Shown here: piece by piece, positions 601 through 44,356 of the stretch
Layout: the number at the start of each line of letters is the position of its first letter
Position numbering within the stretch: position 1 is the stretch's first letter
From: Opitutales bacterium
Lineage (GTDB): Bacteria > Verrucomicrobiota > Verrucomicrobiia > Opitutales > PNEW01
Length of the DNA: 64,000 nt
Direction of reading: 5' to 3'
Assembly: GCA_965197745.1 (NCBI GenBank)
Contig: CBDANS010000007.1
Coordinates: 576,001 to 640,000, forward strand
Made by a program: the position numbers and the translations under genes
Notes under the pieces: generated by a model
Told to the model about the DNA's origin: nothing
The model's input: the letters and a program-made list of their open reading frames with translations, nothing else
Databases searched by the model: none

Positions 601-2778
601 ATGTCGATTGAGTCTGAAAGCAACGTTATCGACATGATCCTTGCCCAACATGGGGCTGCTTATAATTGTTTCAGCGAAATTCAGCAATCTGAGCACGCTC
701 AGTTACTCGGGGAAATAAATAAGCCGGGTGATTTACAGTTACACGCGCAACGCCGAGATTCCCAACTCTGGACGATAACGGTATCAGCTGAGGATTCCCT
801 GGGTATTCTATCGATTATTACCGGCTTATTTGCAGCACAACGAATCGATGTCATAAGCGGGGATTTTTTCACGGTTCACATTAAGAAACGATTGGAATCC
901 GTGAAGTCCGATCGTTTTAAGCGGCGGCGTGGTCCACGTCATCATAGGTCTCGAACGGTTTATCGTAAGATCCTTGACCTATTCGAAGTTCGCACGGAGG
1001 TGGAAGTGAATGATGACTATTGGAAAGCATTAGGGAATGAGCTGGTTGCATTGGTGGCTATGGTTGCCAAGGGGAATTTGGAGCAGGTGCGTGAAGATAT
1101 AATTTATCGAGTTTGTTCTATAACACGGGAGAGAGATAATTTTGACGAGCGACTTCTACCCATTACCATTTCCATGGACAATGAGTCCTCACCTAATTTT
1201 ACCGGACTACGTATTCAGACCATTGATACCCCGGGGTTTATATTTGAATTTTCTAATGCTCTGGCCCTGCTTAATGTTAATATTGAGCGCGTTGAGGTAC
1301 GTACTGATGACGATGGTGTCCATGACACTTTTTGGGTGAGTGATTCGCAGAGGCGAAAAATAGACGATAAAAATCGATTAAATGAGCTCCGGTTAGCGGC
1401 CACTTTGATAAAACAGTTTACCCATTTGCTTCCTCGTGCGCCCAATCCCGCACAGGCACTTAGTCAATTTAGCGCCTTAACAATCCAGATGCTATCCAAT
1501 CCGGATTGGATTCGTGAGGCCCAGGCGCTCCAATCCAGCCTTGTCTTGCGCACCATAGCTGACCTGATGGGGACAAGTCAGTTTCTGTGGGAAGACTTTC
1601 TGCGAATGCAGCATGAAAATTTATTTCCGGTCCTCAGCGATGTGTCAGGACTGGATGAGAAAAAGTTAAAGGTAAATTTATTAAAGGAGTTGGAAGATAA
1701 TTTGCGTGGAACAGGTGATGAAGCAGAACGGATTTCCCAATTAAATAAAATCAAGGACCGCGAGATGTTTCACATCGATCTTCGACATATTACTCAACGG
1801 ATAAACTTTGTGGAATTCTCGATTGAATTGAGTGACCTTGCCGAAGTGATTGTTCAACACGCGGTTGAACTTTGTCAATCGATGCTCCAAAAGAAATATG
1901 GTTACCCAGTTGATGCCAATGGCAAAGTGTGTCCCTGGTGTGTTTGCGCTCTGGGAAAATTCGGCGGGCGTGAATTGGGCTTCGCTTCGGACATCGAATT
2001 GATCTTTGTCTACGAAGGAAATGGGTTTACAGATGGTGAGCATAGCGTTGACAACACCCACTTTTTTGAAGAATCGGTGAGCACATTTCTGCAGATTATA
2101 ACCGCCCGGCAGGAAGGAATATTTCATATCGATTTGCGCCTGAGGCCCTATGGCAAGAGCGGAAAGTTGGCTACTACCCTGGCTGGTTTCCAGAAATATT
2201 TTTCGACAAGCGGCGATGCCGCTCAATTTGAACGCATGGCCCTGGTTAAATTGCGCCCCGTGGCGGGTGATCCTGAATTAGGGGAGCACATCCTGATTGC
2301 GCGCGATCAATTTGTTTACTCAGGCAAACCTGTTGATTACGATGACATTTTGCATTTCCGCCACCGCCAGGCAACCGAGTTGGTTCCCACTAAAGCGGTT
2401 AGCGCGAAACTTAGTCATGGGGGCTTAGTCGATGTGGAATATTTTATCCAGGCGCGACAGATAGAGGTGGGAGTAACTGCTCCCCCTGTCCGTGTGGCTA
2501 ACATGCAGGAAGCTATAACTCAGCTTGAAAAGACCGGCGACATTAACGCGTTTCAAGCGGCAGAGTTGCGTACCACCTACGCGTTTCTCCGTCAATTAAT
2601 TGACGCATTACGCTCGGTGCGAGGTAATGCCAAGGATTTAACTCTCCCCTCAACGGAATCCCTTGAGTATGAATATTTAGCCCGCCGCCTCGGATATGAA
2701 TCCGGTTATTCATTGCAGAAAGATGTTACCCTCCGCATGGACTTCGCACGTCATTTGTGGAGCGAAGACCGAAGCTGA
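601..2778 (+). CDS. ACT-domain-containing GlnE-type nucleotidyltransferase (second half of a GlnE-like system)
   Basis: ACT-like segments (DSLGILSIITGLF; DTPGFIFEFSNALALLNVNI). NTase motifs ALGKFGGRELGFASDIELIF, IDLRLRPYGKSG and KLSHGGLVDVEY. Confidence 0.8.
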   Translation: MSIESESNVIDMILAQHGAAYNCFSEIQQSEHAQLLGEINKPGDLQLHAQRRDSQLWTITVSAEDSLGILSIITGLFAAQRIDVISGDFFTVHIKKRLESVKSDRFKRRRGPRHHRSRTVYRKILDLFEVRTEVEVNDDYWKALGNELVALVAMVAKGNLEQVREDIIYRVCSITRERDNFDERLLPITISMDNESSPNFTGLRIQTIDTPGFIFEFSNALALLNVNIERVEVRTDDDGVHDTFWVSDSQRRKIDDKNRLNELRLAATLIKQFTHLLPRAPNPAQALSQFSALTIQMLSNPDWIREAQALQSSLVLRTIADLMGTSQFLWEDFLRMQHENLFPVLSDVSGLDEKKLKVNLLKELEDNLRGTGDEAERISQLNKIKDREMFHIDLRHITQRINFVEFSIELSDLAEVIVQHAVELCQSMLQKKYGYPVDANGKVCPWCVCALGKFGGRELGFASDIELIFVYEGNGFTDGEHSVDNTHFFEESVSTFLQIITARQEGIFHIDLRLRPYGKSGKLATTLAGFQKYFSTSGDAAQFERMALVKLRPVAGDPELGEHILIARDQFVYSGKPVDYDDILHFRHRQATELVPTKAVSAKLSHGGLVDVEYFIQARQIEVGVTAPPVRVANMQEAITQLEKTGDINAFQAAELRTTYAFLRQLIDALRSVRGNAKDLTLPSTESLEYEYLARRLGYESGYSLQKDVTLRMDFARHLWSEDRS

Positions 2779-39818: not shown

Positions 39819-39976
39819 GACTTCCTTCGCCAGGAATCACTTCATATCTCAGTGAAGTTCGCTTACGATAGGTTACAGTAAATTGTCTAAGCCTTTGATT
39901 GATATACAAATATATCAGTGATATAGGATAACTCTTTTCTCAGCTAGGGGTAAAGGCTAAGTCGTATTTCTCAAGG

Positions 39977-40441
39977 TTAATATTCCAAAATCATGGTATA
40001 GCGATTTATTGCGGTACGCTGAAAGTTGCCTGTGCTCACATCACCATCATCGAAAGCTTCATCAAGATACGCCATCTGTTGAACACCATAATTCGTATTA
40101 ATTATACTAATACCCGCCGTGATTCCAAAAGCGCCAAAGTCCCAGTCCCAGTTACCTCCGGATGGTGTTATTTCAGTCCATACTGTATTGCTTAGGTATG
40201 CATCCATACCATTGGGGATAACTGCGAATGGAGAATCGGGCGGATAGCCACCCTCTGCCTGGGCATATTGTTCAAAGGCGCCCGCGAAAACACGCCAGTT
40301 GTTTATAAGATATGTATTATGGGCTCTATCACGTGCACGTCGAATATAAGGAATAGCGAAAGTAGTGAGTATTCCAATAATGACGACGACGATCATCATT
40401 TCGACGAGGTTAAACCCCAGCGAGTTTCTGTAATGCTTCAT
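39977..40441 (-). CDS. Prepilin-type N-terminal cleavage/methylation domain protein
   Basis: G|FNLVEMMIVVVIIGIL...AIP. Confidence 0.85.
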   Translation of the reverse strand: MKHYRNSLGFNLVEMMIVVVIIGILTTFAIPYIRRARDRAHNTYLINNWRVFAGAFEQYAQAEGGYPPDSPFAVIPNGMDAYLSNTVWTEITPSGGNWDWDFGAFGITAGISIINTNYGVQQMAYLDEAFDDGDVSTGNFQRTAINRYTMILEY

Positions 40442-40495
40442 ATGATTAAAATCTTTAAGAAAGCCTGTGCTTCATGATTGTATTATTATTAGAAT

Positions 40496-41137
40496 TCACG
40501 AGGTGCCCGCGAGAATTATTTCATTTGTTAATTTCCATCCCCTTCTGGTCAGGATAATAGTTTCAACCCCATATAGAATACACGTAAATAATGCTAAGTA
40601 CGCTCCTGTCTCCAGGTTATCTCTAAAACTGACAAGGCAAAAGACAGCATTGGGAATATAGGCTAAATGGATGGATGCTGAAGCGTTTATTTCATGCGGC
40701 ACATGCTTTCGCTGATTGATGAATACCAAAAATATACTGATTAGTATCAGTATCAAAGTAATATATAATAAAAAGTTTTCTACGCGGTCTAACCGATATA
40801 AAGTTGCGACAAGGATAGAAACTAATGCTAATATTGACAAGAGGTAGCCAATGGCGATTTCTGCTTTGGTCAATTGATTTTTATTTAATACCCTTATACT
40901 CCAGAGTAAAATAAGGCATGGCAGGAACAACGGATATGAAATAAGTAATATTTCTCTACCGACAGTATGGTTATCATTTTCGAAAACAATATTTAGAGGG
41001 CTGTGAAAGAATTTATCCAGTAGTCCCAGGATGGCATTCATGGTTGAAATGCCATCCGTAAGAGGCATGAAAAGTGAAATGATACCGGGTATGGTCAGTA
41101 TAGGGTATAAGAATTTAAATTGAATAAAATTCCTCAT
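40496..41137 (-). CDS. Hypothetical membrane protein
   Basis: 213-aa AT-rich ORF with several hydrophobic segments. Confidence 0.5.
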   Translation of the reverse strand: MRNFIQFKFLYPILTIPGIISLFMPLTDGISTMNAILGLLDKFFHSPLNIVFENDNHTVGREILLISYPLFLPCLILLWSIRVLNKNQLTKAEIAIGYLLSILALVSILVATLYRLDRVENFLLYITLILILISIFLVFINQRKHVPHEINASASIHLAYIPNAVFCLVSFRDNLETGAYLALFTCILYGVETIILTRRGWKLTNEIILAGTS

Positions 41138-41295
41138 GTATTTAACGGGAATTAGATAGATAATTTATTTTTCATCCATTTTTTTCAGAAAGATTCGCAT
41201 ACATCGGAAACCCACCAGTGAAGTTATAAGTAATTGAATTTCAATCAAAGGAGAGGTGGCAACGTTTCTCAGTTCTACAGCTTTGCGATATCATT

Positions 41296-41667
41296 TTAAG
41301 GCTTCGCCAGAATCCCGAGATTGAATTGGGCTTGGATGTGTCCCTGTTCGGCAGCTTTACTATACCATTTAACAGCTCTTCTTGAAATTTTATCTACATC
41401 TATACATTTTTCATATTTTACCCCAAGATAATATTGGGCGTCGGCGTATTTCTCACCAGCCATTTTACGAATCCATTTAAATGCTTCGGAGTGTTTCTGA
41501 ATATCTGCCTTGCGAAACCAATTGAAAGCCTGTGCATAATCTTGTTCTACACCTTCGCCTATGTAATGCATCATCCCAAGACTGAATTGGGCACCAGCAT
41601 ATCCTTTTTCAGCTGCTTTCTGAAACCACTTGAGTGCCTCGGCAAAATCCTGTTCTACGTACAAGCC
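41296..41667 (-). pseudogene. Sel1-like repeat protein fragment, 5' end truncated by IS3
   Basis: VEQDFAEALKWFQKAAEKGYAGAQFSLGMM; the frame abuts the IS end at 41668. Confidence 0.8.
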
Positions 41668-41696
41668 TGATTGGACCCCGTTTTTCGTACCAATTA

Positions 41697-42693
41697 TTAA
41701 GTGAGAGAGTTCCCGGGTATTAATGGTTTTAGGATTGATGTATATGAGAGATCTTGGCGAAGTGAGGGCGTAGCCCGAACGCGGCCAAGATCTGAAAGGA
41801 ATGTGACAAACTCTTGTGGGCTTTTAAAGCCTAAACGACTGTGGGGATGATCATGGTTATAGGTCTGGCGCCATTGTTCGATTACAACTTGTGCTTCAGC
41901 CACGCTGAGCAACACTTCACGGTTCAAACACTCATCGCGTAAGCGGTTGTGAAACGACTCGATGAAACCGTTTTGCCAGGGACTGCCCGGATCGATATAT
42001 ATCGCCTTGATCTTTTTGTCGGACAACGACTGCTGCACTTGATGAGCAATGAATGGCTTCGCATGTCGTCGCTTCGCTCCTCGGAACACTGCCGTTGTCA
42101 CTACGGATATAGCTGGGAGCTCCCTCCTTTTCAATGGCCTCGCTAAGCACAGAGAGGACATCCGATGAGGTGAGTTCACGAGCGACCCGGATATCCAGAC
42201 ATTCACGCGTATATGTCTTCGCTTCGCTTGAGTGTCGTCGCTTTCAGCTCCTCGGTACATCGATCAGAGTCATCATCTTTAATGGACCGCCATGGTCTGT
42301 GCGATCATGGACAAAGTCCCAGGACCAAAGGTGATTGCGACCGGTTGCTTTAGTAGGCGACCCCGTAGAGACCCCTTGACGGTGTCTACGCTTTTTAGGT
42401 GGCTTTACCTGCAACCCTTCTGAACGTCGTACTGCCTGAACAAACTTCCTGTTTGTTGTCCAGCCTTCCTTTACGAGCAAGGCACGGATGCGCCGGTAAC
42501 CGTAGCAGGGATGTTCCCAGGACAGGGTTATAATCCGCTCGGCCAACCGCTGAGCTTTCTTACTGGCCTGCTTGGGCTGGTAGCTGAAAGTTGACCAACT
42601 GAGGCTGAGGTAGGAACAAGCCCTTCGCAACGAGCACAGCCCTCTCTCAGCCGCATCTTTTACTACTCGCTTCTTCTGCTTGGGGCTCACCAC
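41697..42693 (-). pseudogene. IS3 OrfB DDE transposase, interrupted by two short insertions (about 42055-42086 and 42215-42257)
   Basis: YGYRRI, WSWDFVHD, LID[ins]YTRECL, IRSDNGS[ins]FIA, PGSPWQNGFIESF..RLRDECL. Confidence 0.88.
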
Positions 42694-42953
42694 TTTTTTG
42701 ACAGCGTTTCCTCCATTACCTGATTCTTAAGCATTTGATCAGCGAGCATCTTCTTCAACTCGGTGTTTTCTTTTTCCAGCTCTTTAAATCGCTTCGCATC
42801 GGCTAGTTCCAAATTGCCATACTTTTTACCCCAGCGATAGAAGGTCTGTTCACTCACGTTGTTGCCTCGGCAGATTTCCTCTACCGTTTTTCCGGTATCG
42901 GCTTGCCGCAGTATTGCGATGATCTGTTCTGTTGTGTATCTTTTTCTTTTCAT
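42687..42953 (-). CDS. IS3 OrfA (HTH)
   Basis: MKRKRYTTEQII.ILRQ...EICR..NVSEQTFYRW..KY...LEKEN.ELKK. Confidence 0.92.
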   Translation of the reverse strand: MKRKRYTTEQIIAILRQADTGKTVEEICRGNNVSEQTFYRWGKKYGNLELADAKRFKELEKENTELKKMLADQMLKNQVMEETLSKKW

Positions 42954-43332
42954 GAGGTTATCTGTTTATCCCGATAACCTCTCTCTGTTAATGATACCAT
43001 TTTTGGGGGTCACTCCACCGTTTATACAGGCATATTGTGACCAATGGAATACAAGCCGTGTATACGATGGTATACTTCTGATGATGCTGAAATGCGAAGG
43101 GGTACAGTAATTAATATCTGCCCATCACCCTTATTGCAAAAAATGTAGTATCTGCCTAAACCGATTAGATGAGACCGAGGGTAGGGAACATTGACACCCC
43201 CGCCCCTCTTGATGAACTTGATATTATAGGCACAATTTATCCTTTATATTGAATATCAGAATGTTTTTAATGCACCAGAAATGCACCAGTGAATTTATAA
43301 GTTTAATTATTGCTGTCTTAAGTATTTGAATA

Positions 43333-43713
43333 TCAAGCTGAGGAGAGGTGGCAGAGTGGCTGACTACGAAGGTTAGAAACCTGAGACCCCATGTGCCTGG
43401 CTGCATCAGGCACAGTAGAAGTAAAATCGACTTTACATTATTCCATGAGTCGCAAATCGTCAGGCTGAGGAAAGGTGGCAGAGTGGCTGACTACGAAGGT
43501 TAGAAACCTGAGACCCCATGTGCCTGGCTGCATCAGGCACAGTAGAAGTAAAATCGACTTTGCATTATTCCATGAGTCGCAAATCGTCAGGCTGAGGAAA
43601 GGTGGCAGAGTGGCCGACTACGAAGGTTGAAAACCTGAGACCCCATGTGCCTGGCTGCATCAGGCACAATAGAAGTAAAATCGACTTTACATTAATCCAT
43701 GAGTCGCAAATCG
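43333..43713 (+). repeat. Three tandem 127-bp units, each containing a modified 5' half of tRNA-Ser
   Basis: GCTGAGG recurs at 43337, 43464, 43591 and 43718 (period 127). Units differ by a few SNPs. Confidence 0.95.
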
Positions 43714-43722
43714 TCAAGCTGA

Positions 43723-43812
43723 GGAGAGGTGGCAGAGTGGCCGAATGTGCCTGACTCGAAATCAGGTGGTGGAGCAATCCACCCGGGGGTTCGAATCCCT
43801 CCCTCTCCGCCA
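43723..43812 (+). tRNA. tRNA-Ser (anticodon CGA)
   Basis: GGAGAGG...CCTCTCC-G-CCA acceptor, anticodon arm CCTGA-CTCGAAA-TCAGG, long variable arm, GGTTCGAATCC. Confidence 0.97.
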
Positions 43813-44356
43813 GTTCAATTGCGGATTGTCGATTGTCGATTGGATAAGATTTATCAATGGCGGATTTATTTTTGCTTCGAGTTGGCTCTGGCGGATTTGC
43901 GTGAGGTCACGACAATGGCGGTAATTTCGTTTGCTTCTTGTTTTACTTCTTGGAGGTAGTTGTAAGGAAGAATTCCCGATTCTTCGGTTAGCTCTAACCA
44001 GAATAGAGTTTCGTCAGCTTCTTCTTCAACAATACCAAGTTTTGCTATGAACTCCGTTTTGCTTCTTGCTCTACAAGCTGATCGATAATTCGAAGCTACA
44101 GATGTTCCACATCGTACGATTTGATTGCTTATAATTCTTGCGGTTGAAGTTTTGGGTAATGCTTCAACCATTTTCAGTATTTTCAAAGCAAAAATTTTAG
44201 TCCTATTCTTCATTATATCTGGATTCATATAATGTAAGAATTCGGATAAACTCTGTTTTTTATTAAGGCTTTAATCGAATTTCTCAATCAGCAATCGAAA
44301 ATCGAAAATCGAAAATCGAAAATTCCCCAAGATCCCTCCCTCTCCGCCAGTTCAAT
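43795..44356. mobile_element. tRNA 3'-anchored mini-element: 25-bp direct repeats, inverted heptamer arms, four-helix-bundle gene
   Basis: ATCCCTCCCTCTCCGCCAGTTCAAT is identical at 43795-43819 and 44332-44356. Arms are (GATTGTC)n at 43817-43844 and (AAATCGA)n at 44285-44324. Confidence 0.7.
43866..44228 (-). CDS. Four helix bundle protein (23S rRNA intervening-sequence protein/TIGR02436-like)
   Basis: RTK.FAL.I...V..LP......I..QI.RCGTSVASNYR.ACRARSK.EFIAKL.IVEEEADET.FWLEL ... EANEI.AI. Confidence 0.92.
   Translation of the reverse strand: MNPDIMKNRTKIFALKILKMVEALPKTSTARIISNQIVRCGTSVASNYRSACRARSKTEFIAKLGIVEEEADETLFWLELTEESGILPYNYLQEVKQEANEITAIVVTSRKSARANSKQK

Follow-up and report, generated by a model that had tools for sequence, protein, structure and literature searches.

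We found that the tRNA-Ser(CGA) gene of the studied genome (G000, 4.45 Mb), the sole gene with that anticodon among its 44 tRNAs, is directly preceded by an array of 127-bp tandem units, each of which joins the first 22 nucleotides of the tRNA to a 27-nt segment, a hairpin, and a promoter-like box. The array lies in the window, that is, the whole stretch of 64,000 nucleotides that was analyzed. Comparison with related sequences makes it very probable that the array arose via tandem duplication of a promoter module and that it is common by descent to G000 and to L051, a metagenome contig from the sister genus.

The presence of three 127-bp tandem units directly 5' of tRNA-Ser(CGA), claimed in a preliminary description of this DNA, was reproduced by Tandem Repeats Finder and ARAGORN. 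The former delimited a repeat at 43333-43741 (period 127, 3.2 copies, 96% matches, no indels, score 748), the 3' end of which lies 22 nt inside the tRNA gene. The 22-mer GGARAGGTGGCAGAGTGGCYGA occurred four times (starting at 43342, 43469, 43596, and 43723), with none expected according to 100 shuffles, and the fourth copy forms the 5' start of the intact tRNA. Each unit comprises, in this order, tRNA nt 1-22, the 27-nt segment, an A followed by hairpin H, a stretch with TTTACA, a 17-nt spacer, AATCGT, and an 8-nt leader (Table 1). Hairpin H has the form TGTGCCTGG-CTGCA-TCAGGCACA in the units, its 5' strand being the same as tRNA nt 23-31, and the stretch that follows it reads GTAAAATCGACTTT(A/G)CATT, with TTTACA inside. 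The finer anatomy given in the preliminary description was also borne out: the 27-nt segment after nt 22, the AGGTT-N3-AACCT motif, ATGTGCCTG, the 9-bp hairpin, the GTAAA..TTTAC pair, and TTTACA-N17-AATCGT with its end 8 nt ahead of the following GGA were all present in the sequence. Eight positions vary among the three units. In a genome-wide search, the 127-bp unit and its parts were found at this single site of G000.

Two other identities of the units were rejected. They are not coding sequences, as their GTG frames of 50-51 aa shift with each 127-bp period, and in the L051 units the GTG and ATG frames run for only 22 and 11 codons, respectively, before a stop. Nor could they be assigned to a known RNA family, as Rfam at E up to 10 gave only a chance match to mir-218 (E 5.9).

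Table 1. Positions of the array, its parts, and the features around it (window coordinates unless a contig or locus is named).
Feature	Position	Strand	Remarks
Sel1 Pfam match	41296-41664		
IS3-family element	41697-42953	-	between the Sel1 gene and region X
Left flank X	43123..43332	.	intergenic region common to G001, where X abuts the tRNA
Copy 0	43333..43363	+	9-nt leader TCAAGCTGA and tRNA nt 1-22; remainder of the first module replaced by X
Unit 1	43342..43468	+	counted from the tRNA-like 5' end (G1)
Unit 1, tRNA nt 1-22	43342-43363		
Unit 1, 27-nt segment	43364-43390		
Unit 1, hairpin H	43392-43414		loop 43401-43405
Unit 1, -35-like TTTACA	43432-43437		
Unit 1, -10-like AATCGT	43455-43460		
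Unit 1, leader	43461-43468		
Unit 2	43469..43595	+	layout as unit 1; -35-like hexamer is TTTGCA; tRNA-like position 4 is A
Unit 3	43596..43722	+	C at position 20, G at position 34; promoter-like box serves the intact tRNA
tRNA-Ser(CGA), intact	43723-43812	+	ARAGORN; Rfam tRNA 55.6 bits
Heptamer repeats	43824-43842, 44293-44323; L010 about 1670-1705; L011 about 1500-1535		
tRNA 3' fragments	C5:236592-236609, C6:355593-355610, C7:491929-491945, C7:1342420-1342445		island-type or RtT-type

The array is not an assembly stutter, as had been argued before from the differences between copies; the unit-to-unit junctions were recovered in contigs of four public runs. Logan contigs from these runs, which belong to three studies, covered the junctions between the flank and unit 1, between units 1 and 2, and between unit 3 and the tRNA, and contigs of run X3 covered the junction between units 2 and 3. 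The junction contigs listed showed no other letters, with the exception of one X1 contig that showed one. The stretch identical in units 1 and 2 was sequenced to about twice the depth of the flank (38.1 versus 19.8 in run X1 and 29.2 versus 13.8 in run X2). None of the contigs reaches across the entire array, and the best-matching run may itself be the source sample, so that the number of exactly three copies is not independently proven. Run X1 additionally contained an A>G variant at 43435, which turns the TTTACA of unit 1 into TTTGCA. Joints from 43363 to 43782-43786, considered as deletions of the array, were discarded, as they had 22 letters on one side and represented other tRNA-bearing contigs.

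The family of G000 has three other species representatives (G001, G002, and G003), all of them in the sister genus, and the comparison also comprised two metagenome contigs, L051 and L078. G002 has a single copy, with mlaC directly before the spacer, and the order of elements is the mlaC stop, AGATTACACCGAGGT, the hairpin TGTGCCTGG-GAGAT-TCAGGCACA, GTAAAATCAACTTTACATT, CAAATCGT, the leader, and the tRNA. L078 resembles G002 in being single-copy and carries the hairpin TGTGCCTGG/TCAGGCACA in a shortened form; G003 has a single copy in the same arrangement as G002 but with another hairpin. The box GTAAAATCRACTTTRCATT ... CAAATCGT precedes tRNA-Ser in G002, L078, and G003, and the promoter-like box and leader with which each unit ends were found before tRNA-Ser in all family relatives but G001. 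In L051, mlaC is followed by a first module from which some 21 nt are missing, the -35 box among them, and next by two 127-bp units with the identical junction at tRNA nt 22 and the same 27-nt segment as in G000. The L051 flanks are 88-89% identical to those of G001/G002 and 70-75% identical to the window (the G001 and G002 flanks share 96% identity), and the L051 array begins at its natural place behind mlaC. The array was thus found in both genera, in G000 and L051, and was missing in four of the six related lineages examined (G001, G002, G003, and L078).

Wider searches were also conducted. When 401 genomes of the order were searched at the DNA level, the upstream part was recovered in G000 and a stretch of 47 nt from it in G002, besides three short matches (20-26 nt, E 0.002-0.009). 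On 141 genomes, the unit's covariance model exceeded 100 bits only on the three G000 units and reached at most 26 bits elsewhere. Scans with the 19-nt box gave at least 80 metagenome loci and 43 genome loci, and a filter flagged five of the 123 listed; among the five, L051, L078, and L142 (the last being G003) were real, and L035 and L059 were chance matches to the box.

According to the preliminary description, the hairpin of each unit was a remodelled anticodon arm of the tRNA. We instead regard H as the resident intergenic hairpin, because it also occurs in G002 and L078, both single-copy, and its loop differs by lineage (CTGCA, TAGAT, GAGAT, and ATATT). When the G000 unit was compared with tRNA nt 23-44, the likeness was significant, as 12 of 3000 shuffles reached its score (2988 did worse); for the same hairpin in G002 609 of 3000 did, which is not significant, and in this likeness test the hairpin was absent in L078 and G003.

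The duplicated module would consist of the intergenic hairpin H, the sigma-70-like promoter box, the 9-nt leader, and tRNA nt 1-22. In G002, the core (T)GTGCCTG is present both in H (1501-1508) and in tRNA nt 24/25-31 (1601-1608), exactly 100 bp apart, and GTGCCTG was the best match between the G002 spacer and its own tRNA in local alignment. This core of 7-8 nt, common to H and the tRNA, could have mediated the original unequal crossover. Such an exchange would yield a repeat of 100 bp, with tRNA nt 1-31 leading into H; the 27-nt segment would then sit between nt 22 and 23, in agreement with the unit length (100 + 27 = 127), and later unequal crossover would keep the copies alike within each genome. 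The anatomy given in the preliminary description and the likeness of the G000 unit to tRNA nt 23-44 are both compatible with this scheme. Alternatively, the 27 nt may represent the old spacer in diverged form and the break may have taken place at the stop codon of mlaC, a scheme that suits the lengths equally well. MAFFT aligned the 27-nt segment with the old mlaC-proximal spacer, with a similarity not above that of shuffles. In the comparison of the 27-mer with the conserved element found at the same position in the single-copy relatives (AAAGATTACACCGAGG type), shuffles reached the score in 337-1866 of 2000 cases. The 27-mer is not significantly similar to the element of these relatives, and hence its conservation needs a reason of its own.

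At its left edge, the G000 array has been truncated. Region X abuts copy 0 of the 22-mer, and it is the Sel1-X insertion that cut the first module, leaving 9 nt in front of the 22-mer. In blastn, 43123-43363 matched G001 with 82.6% identity over 242 nt. The hairpin, promoter, and leader of G001 are replaced by 1.7 kb of Sel1-gene DNA and region X, and this insert ends in the G000-type leader TCAAGCTGA, directly at the tRNA. Sel1-repeat DNA and non-coding X between mlaC and the tRNA (window 39819-43332) are thus common to G000 and G001, and G002 is devoid of them. The sharing of Sel1-X, together with the G000-type leader in G001, looks like intergenus exchange through recombination at the head of the tRNA. 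Region X is located upstream of a Sel1-repeat gene that runs divergently, and in G000 an IS3-family insertion separates the two. This element contains an orfA with HTH_Tnp_1 (42687-42953) and HTH_21 and rve_3 domains that are distributed between a pair of overlapping ORFs (41697-42693) in the customary frameshift layout. Its depth in public runs amounts to thousands, which suggests many copies or many carriers. Partial copies of X were found at C6:759905-760086 and C6:744736-744802 of G000, near other tandem arrays. On the other side of the locus, the tRNA is succeeded in G000, G001, and G002 by heptamers in tandem, among them GATTGTC, AATCGAA, and related ones like GCGGATT.

Comparison of the G000 and L051 units revealed a mosaic of identity. 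High identity was observed in tRNA nt 1-22 (20-21 of 22 positions), the 27-nt segment (24-25 of 27), the H stems (18 of 18), the -35 box (17-18 of 19), and the -10 box (8 of 8). In the H loop 1 of 5 positions was identical, in the linker 3-4 of 7, in the spacer 4-5 of 13-14, and in the leader 2-4 of 9. Tested against the pooled background of loops, spacers, and leaders (32-37%), the 24-25 of 27 identities of the 27-mer gave a binomial P of 1e-10 to 6e-9 for segments drawn after the alignment was seen. Such a pattern is in favor of purifying selection and argues against the whole unit having been transferred recently. With the 27-nt segment conserved and the loops, spacers, and leaders free to change, the array is therefore old and partly constrained. 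The preliminary description had named strain-specific occurrence and lack of structural conservation as findings that would count against it. This was not what we observed: L051 keeps the nt-22 junction and the 27-nt segment, so that the array is neither strain-specific nor unconserved.

Both covariation and fold stability of the unit were weak. A fold that pairs the 22-mer with the 27-mer was preserved throughout the five units, with 99% of the cells paired, and 1 of its 21 pairs covaried, a score that 47 of 500 shuffles reached. The covarying pair is U20-A34 in G000 units 1 and 2, and C20-G34 in unit 3 and both L051 units. The Z-scores of this hairpin were -2.55, -0.97, +0.14, and -0.44, so that in three of the four units tested it was no more stable than shuffles. 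A four-way cloverleaf-like fold of the whole unit could be drawn in G000 and was not kept in L051; its closing stem was broken at pair 3:102 in two of the five units, and the L051 leader differs. A search for targets by complementarity found 160 perfect 11-mer matches genome-wide versus about 146 estimated by chance, and thus gave no signal.

The promoter-like box is nearly invariant across the family and stands at the right distance in every unit. Upstream 75-mers of the G000 tRNA genes contained TTGAC or TTTACA in 19 of 44 cases, mostly at -37 to -54, versus 382 of 5000 random 75-mers (7.6%). AATCGT matches TATAAT at three of six positions, and a scan of 43000-44000 with the strict sigma-70 consensus detected neither a promoter nor a terminator. 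In every unit, 8 nt separate the -10-like hexamer from the tRNA-like G1, and hence RNA polymerase would start at about -2 to +1 in each of them. H has no U tract, and U-tract terminators were absent from 43000-44000. Judged on a crude ORF set, hairpins were found in G000 downstream of long ORFs in 211 of 2236 cases versus 238 of 2236 intragenic ones, and T-rich tails were likewise not enriched. Canonical intrinsic terminators seem to be rare in this genome. Since hairpins are not enriched after genes in G000, H is not callable as a terminator. The predicted RNA of an upstream unit would start with the 22-nt tRNA head, continue with the conserved 27 nt, and enter H. It would have about 75 nt if it ended at H, or about 127 nt if transcription read on and the RNA was released by the RNase P cut at the tRNA. 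The promoter of the last unit would drive tRNA-Ser(CGA) itself.

Because the 27-nt segment was kept between genera and the loops, spacers, and leaders were not, at least one unit RNA, or a DNA site in it, appears to be under selection, and the array is probably more than a neutral stutter. We consider the chances slightly below even that each unit is a small transcription unit and that its RNA or its 27-nt DNA site is under selection. The array may function either via the extra promoters or via the RNA. The earlier proposals that it multiplies the promoter or yields repeated small RNAs both remain plausible, as each unit keeps the box GTAAAATCRACTTTRCATT ... CAAATCGT. The sample on which conservation can be judged is very small, with two lineages carrying the array, and homogenization within the array could mean that selection on the tRNA-proximal unit alone explains the conservation of all units. 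The extra copies are dispensable, because G001, G002, G003, and L078 do without the array and the first module of L051 has lost its -35 region.

It is possible, although less likely than not, that the array reflects promoter dosage only or neutral repeat turnover, with the extra units acting, if they do so, as added promoters from which transcription reads through to the tRNA, the RNA pieces being waste and the 27 nt a DNA upstream element of the tRNA-proximal promoter copied by homogenization. The family-conserved promoter box kept in every unit, the lack of a terminator-like site between units, and the weak structural support all agree with this explanation, as do the absence of the array from four of the six related lineages examined and the state of the first module, decayed in L051 and truncated in G000. 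The pseudogene arrays of plastid trnF also fit in, being inherited clade-wide, with the promoter-like elements in Brassicaceae judged non-functional according to PMC3786074. However, the segment at the same position in the single-copy relatives has no significant similarity to the 27-mer, so an inherited element fails to explain why the 27-mer was kept, and a freely collapsing 127-bp repeat would not be expected to persist in two genera.

A duplication of the promoter that gave a new small-RNA gene, with the tRNA-Ser(CGA) promoter now driving two to three tandem copies of a trans-acting RNA some 75 nt long, is a somewhat unlikely reading of the same sequences. Such an RNA might act, for instance, by base-pairing through AACCUGAGACCCCAUG, which is invariant, or by binding away a factor that recognizes the 5' end and D-arm of tRNA-Ser. 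For small-RNA arrays with a promoter in each repeat in general, and as a precedent for our preferred reading, the model is NsiR1 of heterocystous cyanobacteria; for Anabaena PCC 7120, 12 tandem copies, each with its own promoter and short RNA, are described in PMC4030482. The transcription of NsiR1 was shown experimentally and its RNA is not built from a tRNA, whereas transcription of the units described here is inferred.

The tRNA heads may also be regarded as scars of site-specific integration or decoys, i.e., as duplicates of the attL/attR type that remained from an integrative element with the 5' part of the gene as its target, which we find very unlikely. An upstream 5' fragment in direct orientation has the right configuration, being, like the tDNA fragments of Islander islands, a direct partial tRNA copy on the expected side of the intact gene. 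Islander includes 159 islands of 3919 with a 5' tDNA fragment, as given in PMC4383910. The replacement of the G001 locus by 1.7 kb of Sel1-X DNA up to the tRNA indicates that recombination at the tRNA head happens, and other partial tRNA copies are present in the G000 genome. However, Pfam detected no integrase in the nine ORFs from mlaC to just past the tRNA; they comprised only an IS3-type transposase, Sel1, a pilin-like N_methyl protein, a weak DUF2157, and a 23S_rRNA_IVP protein. Four further downstream ORFs scanned with Pfam included no integrase either. The units are 127 bp long and devoid of a conserved ORF, whereas the spacing in Islander islands is 2-200 kb and 5' fragments are rare among them (PMC4383910). 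The break lies in the D-loop and not in the anticodon-loop or T-loop/junction subsites that PMC4383910 describes. Moreover, the units carry the ancestral promoter of the locus instead of foreign DNA, and their parts occur nowhere else in the genome. The earlier suggestion of decoy att sites consequently found no backing, given the lack of an integrase, the 127-bp unit size, and the position of the break.

That the unit RNAs are tRNA-half decoys, as proposed in the preliminary description, is hardly credible. In this scheme they would imitate tRNA-Ser and sequester an anticodon nuclease or some other factor that binds tRNA. In its favor, nt 1-22 (nt 1-31 with the 27 nt looped out) are identical to the tRNA or nearly so, the whole unit is drawable as a four-way junction, and the 17-26-bit matches to our covariance model, where their places were compared, coincide with tRNA-Ser genes. 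Against it, the loop CTGCA stands against the anticodon loop CTCGAAA and differs in every lineage, the T arm, variable arm, and 3' acceptor strand are missing, L051 does not preserve the stem that closes the four-way fold, the A at position 4 of units 2 and 3 would break the acceptor stem, and no nuclease or defence gene was seen adjoining the array among the Pfam-scanned ORFs. Only 22 nt (31 with the common core) are derived from the tRNA, and neither program called a unit a tRNA; ARAGORN reported only 43723-43812 in the region, and Rfam tRNA (E up to 10) only the intact gene.

Tandem partial copies of a tRNA gene have reportedly been described behind tyrT of E. coli. This RtT array (tyrT-tyrV; rttR, tpr) likewise has about three tandem units of 100-200 bp, the last of which overlaps a tRNA gene end. 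Tandem Repeats Finder delimited it in E. coli K-12 as 178 bp x 3.1 with 95% matches and an overlap of 19 nt with tyrV, and the annotated small RNA RttR lies inside it. RtT is a mirror image of the array described here: in E. coli, the tRNA's 3' end is shared and the array lies downstream, co-transcribed behind the tRNA, whereas here the 5' end is shared, the array lies upstream, and each unit has its own promoter box. The two have no sequence relation, and Rfam RtT gave no match in a scan of the region at E up to 10. To our knowledge, the function of RtT is still unclear.

The closest case in position and inheritance is that of the plastid trnF(GAA) arrays as described in PMC3786074, although the copied part of the tRNA differs. 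According to that article, one to seven tandem partial tRNA copies lie close 5' of the intact gene in Solanaceae, Brassicaceae, and others; the arrays have a single origin and are inherited clade-wide, and sigma-70-type -35 motifs were multiplied in some taxa (PMC3786074). The same article reports that Koch et al. judged the promoter-like elements of Brassicaceae non-functional. The array of G000 and L051 is of the same type in that tandem partial copies, common to both, stand directly 5' of a functional gene. The plastid copies have 32-73 bp, center mainly on the anticodon domain, and are for the most part devoid of the 5' acceptor strand, as stated in PMC3786074. In contrast, the 5' acceptor strand and the start of the D-arm are fused here to a complete promoter module, in a bacterial genome of free-living size.

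The preliminary description had proposed a search for analogous arrays at other tRNA loci. No such tandem array was found at the other 43 tRNA genes among the 27 genome-wide rows of Tandem Repeats Finder with a period of at least 40 bp. Overall, six of the 44 tRNA loci of G000 have partial copies of themselves nearby. A second duplication of promoter plus head was found outside the window at tRNA-Met(CAT), on the minus strand (C7:1845968-1846757). There, a 268-bp block, 87% identical, comprises the region upstream of the gene together with tRNA nt 1-39, so that the break falls in the anticodon loop; its repeat, which lies 486 bp upstream, is capped by the hairpin TCCCGCAACTGCGGGA. A small ORF beside this block has a GIY-YIG-like start (MRTDPLYHVYVLQN...), as read by eye. 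The last 17-18 nt of tRNA-Gln(CTG), tRNA-Asn, and tRNA-Ser(GCT) recur as exact copies 127-204 nt downstream of the genes, and a copy of the last 26 nt of tRNA-Pro(GGG) was found 2.3 kb downstream.

Our non-exhaustive search of the literature found no bacterial array with a complete promoter and a tRNA 5' end in each copy, an absence that carries little weight. The single-copy relatives may preserve the state before the duplication and are available for comparison. If the units are not transcribed, the array would be a useful marker of how tRNA loci breed repeats. If they are transcribed, it would clearly exemplify the birth of a small RNA through microhomology-mediated duplication of a promoter.
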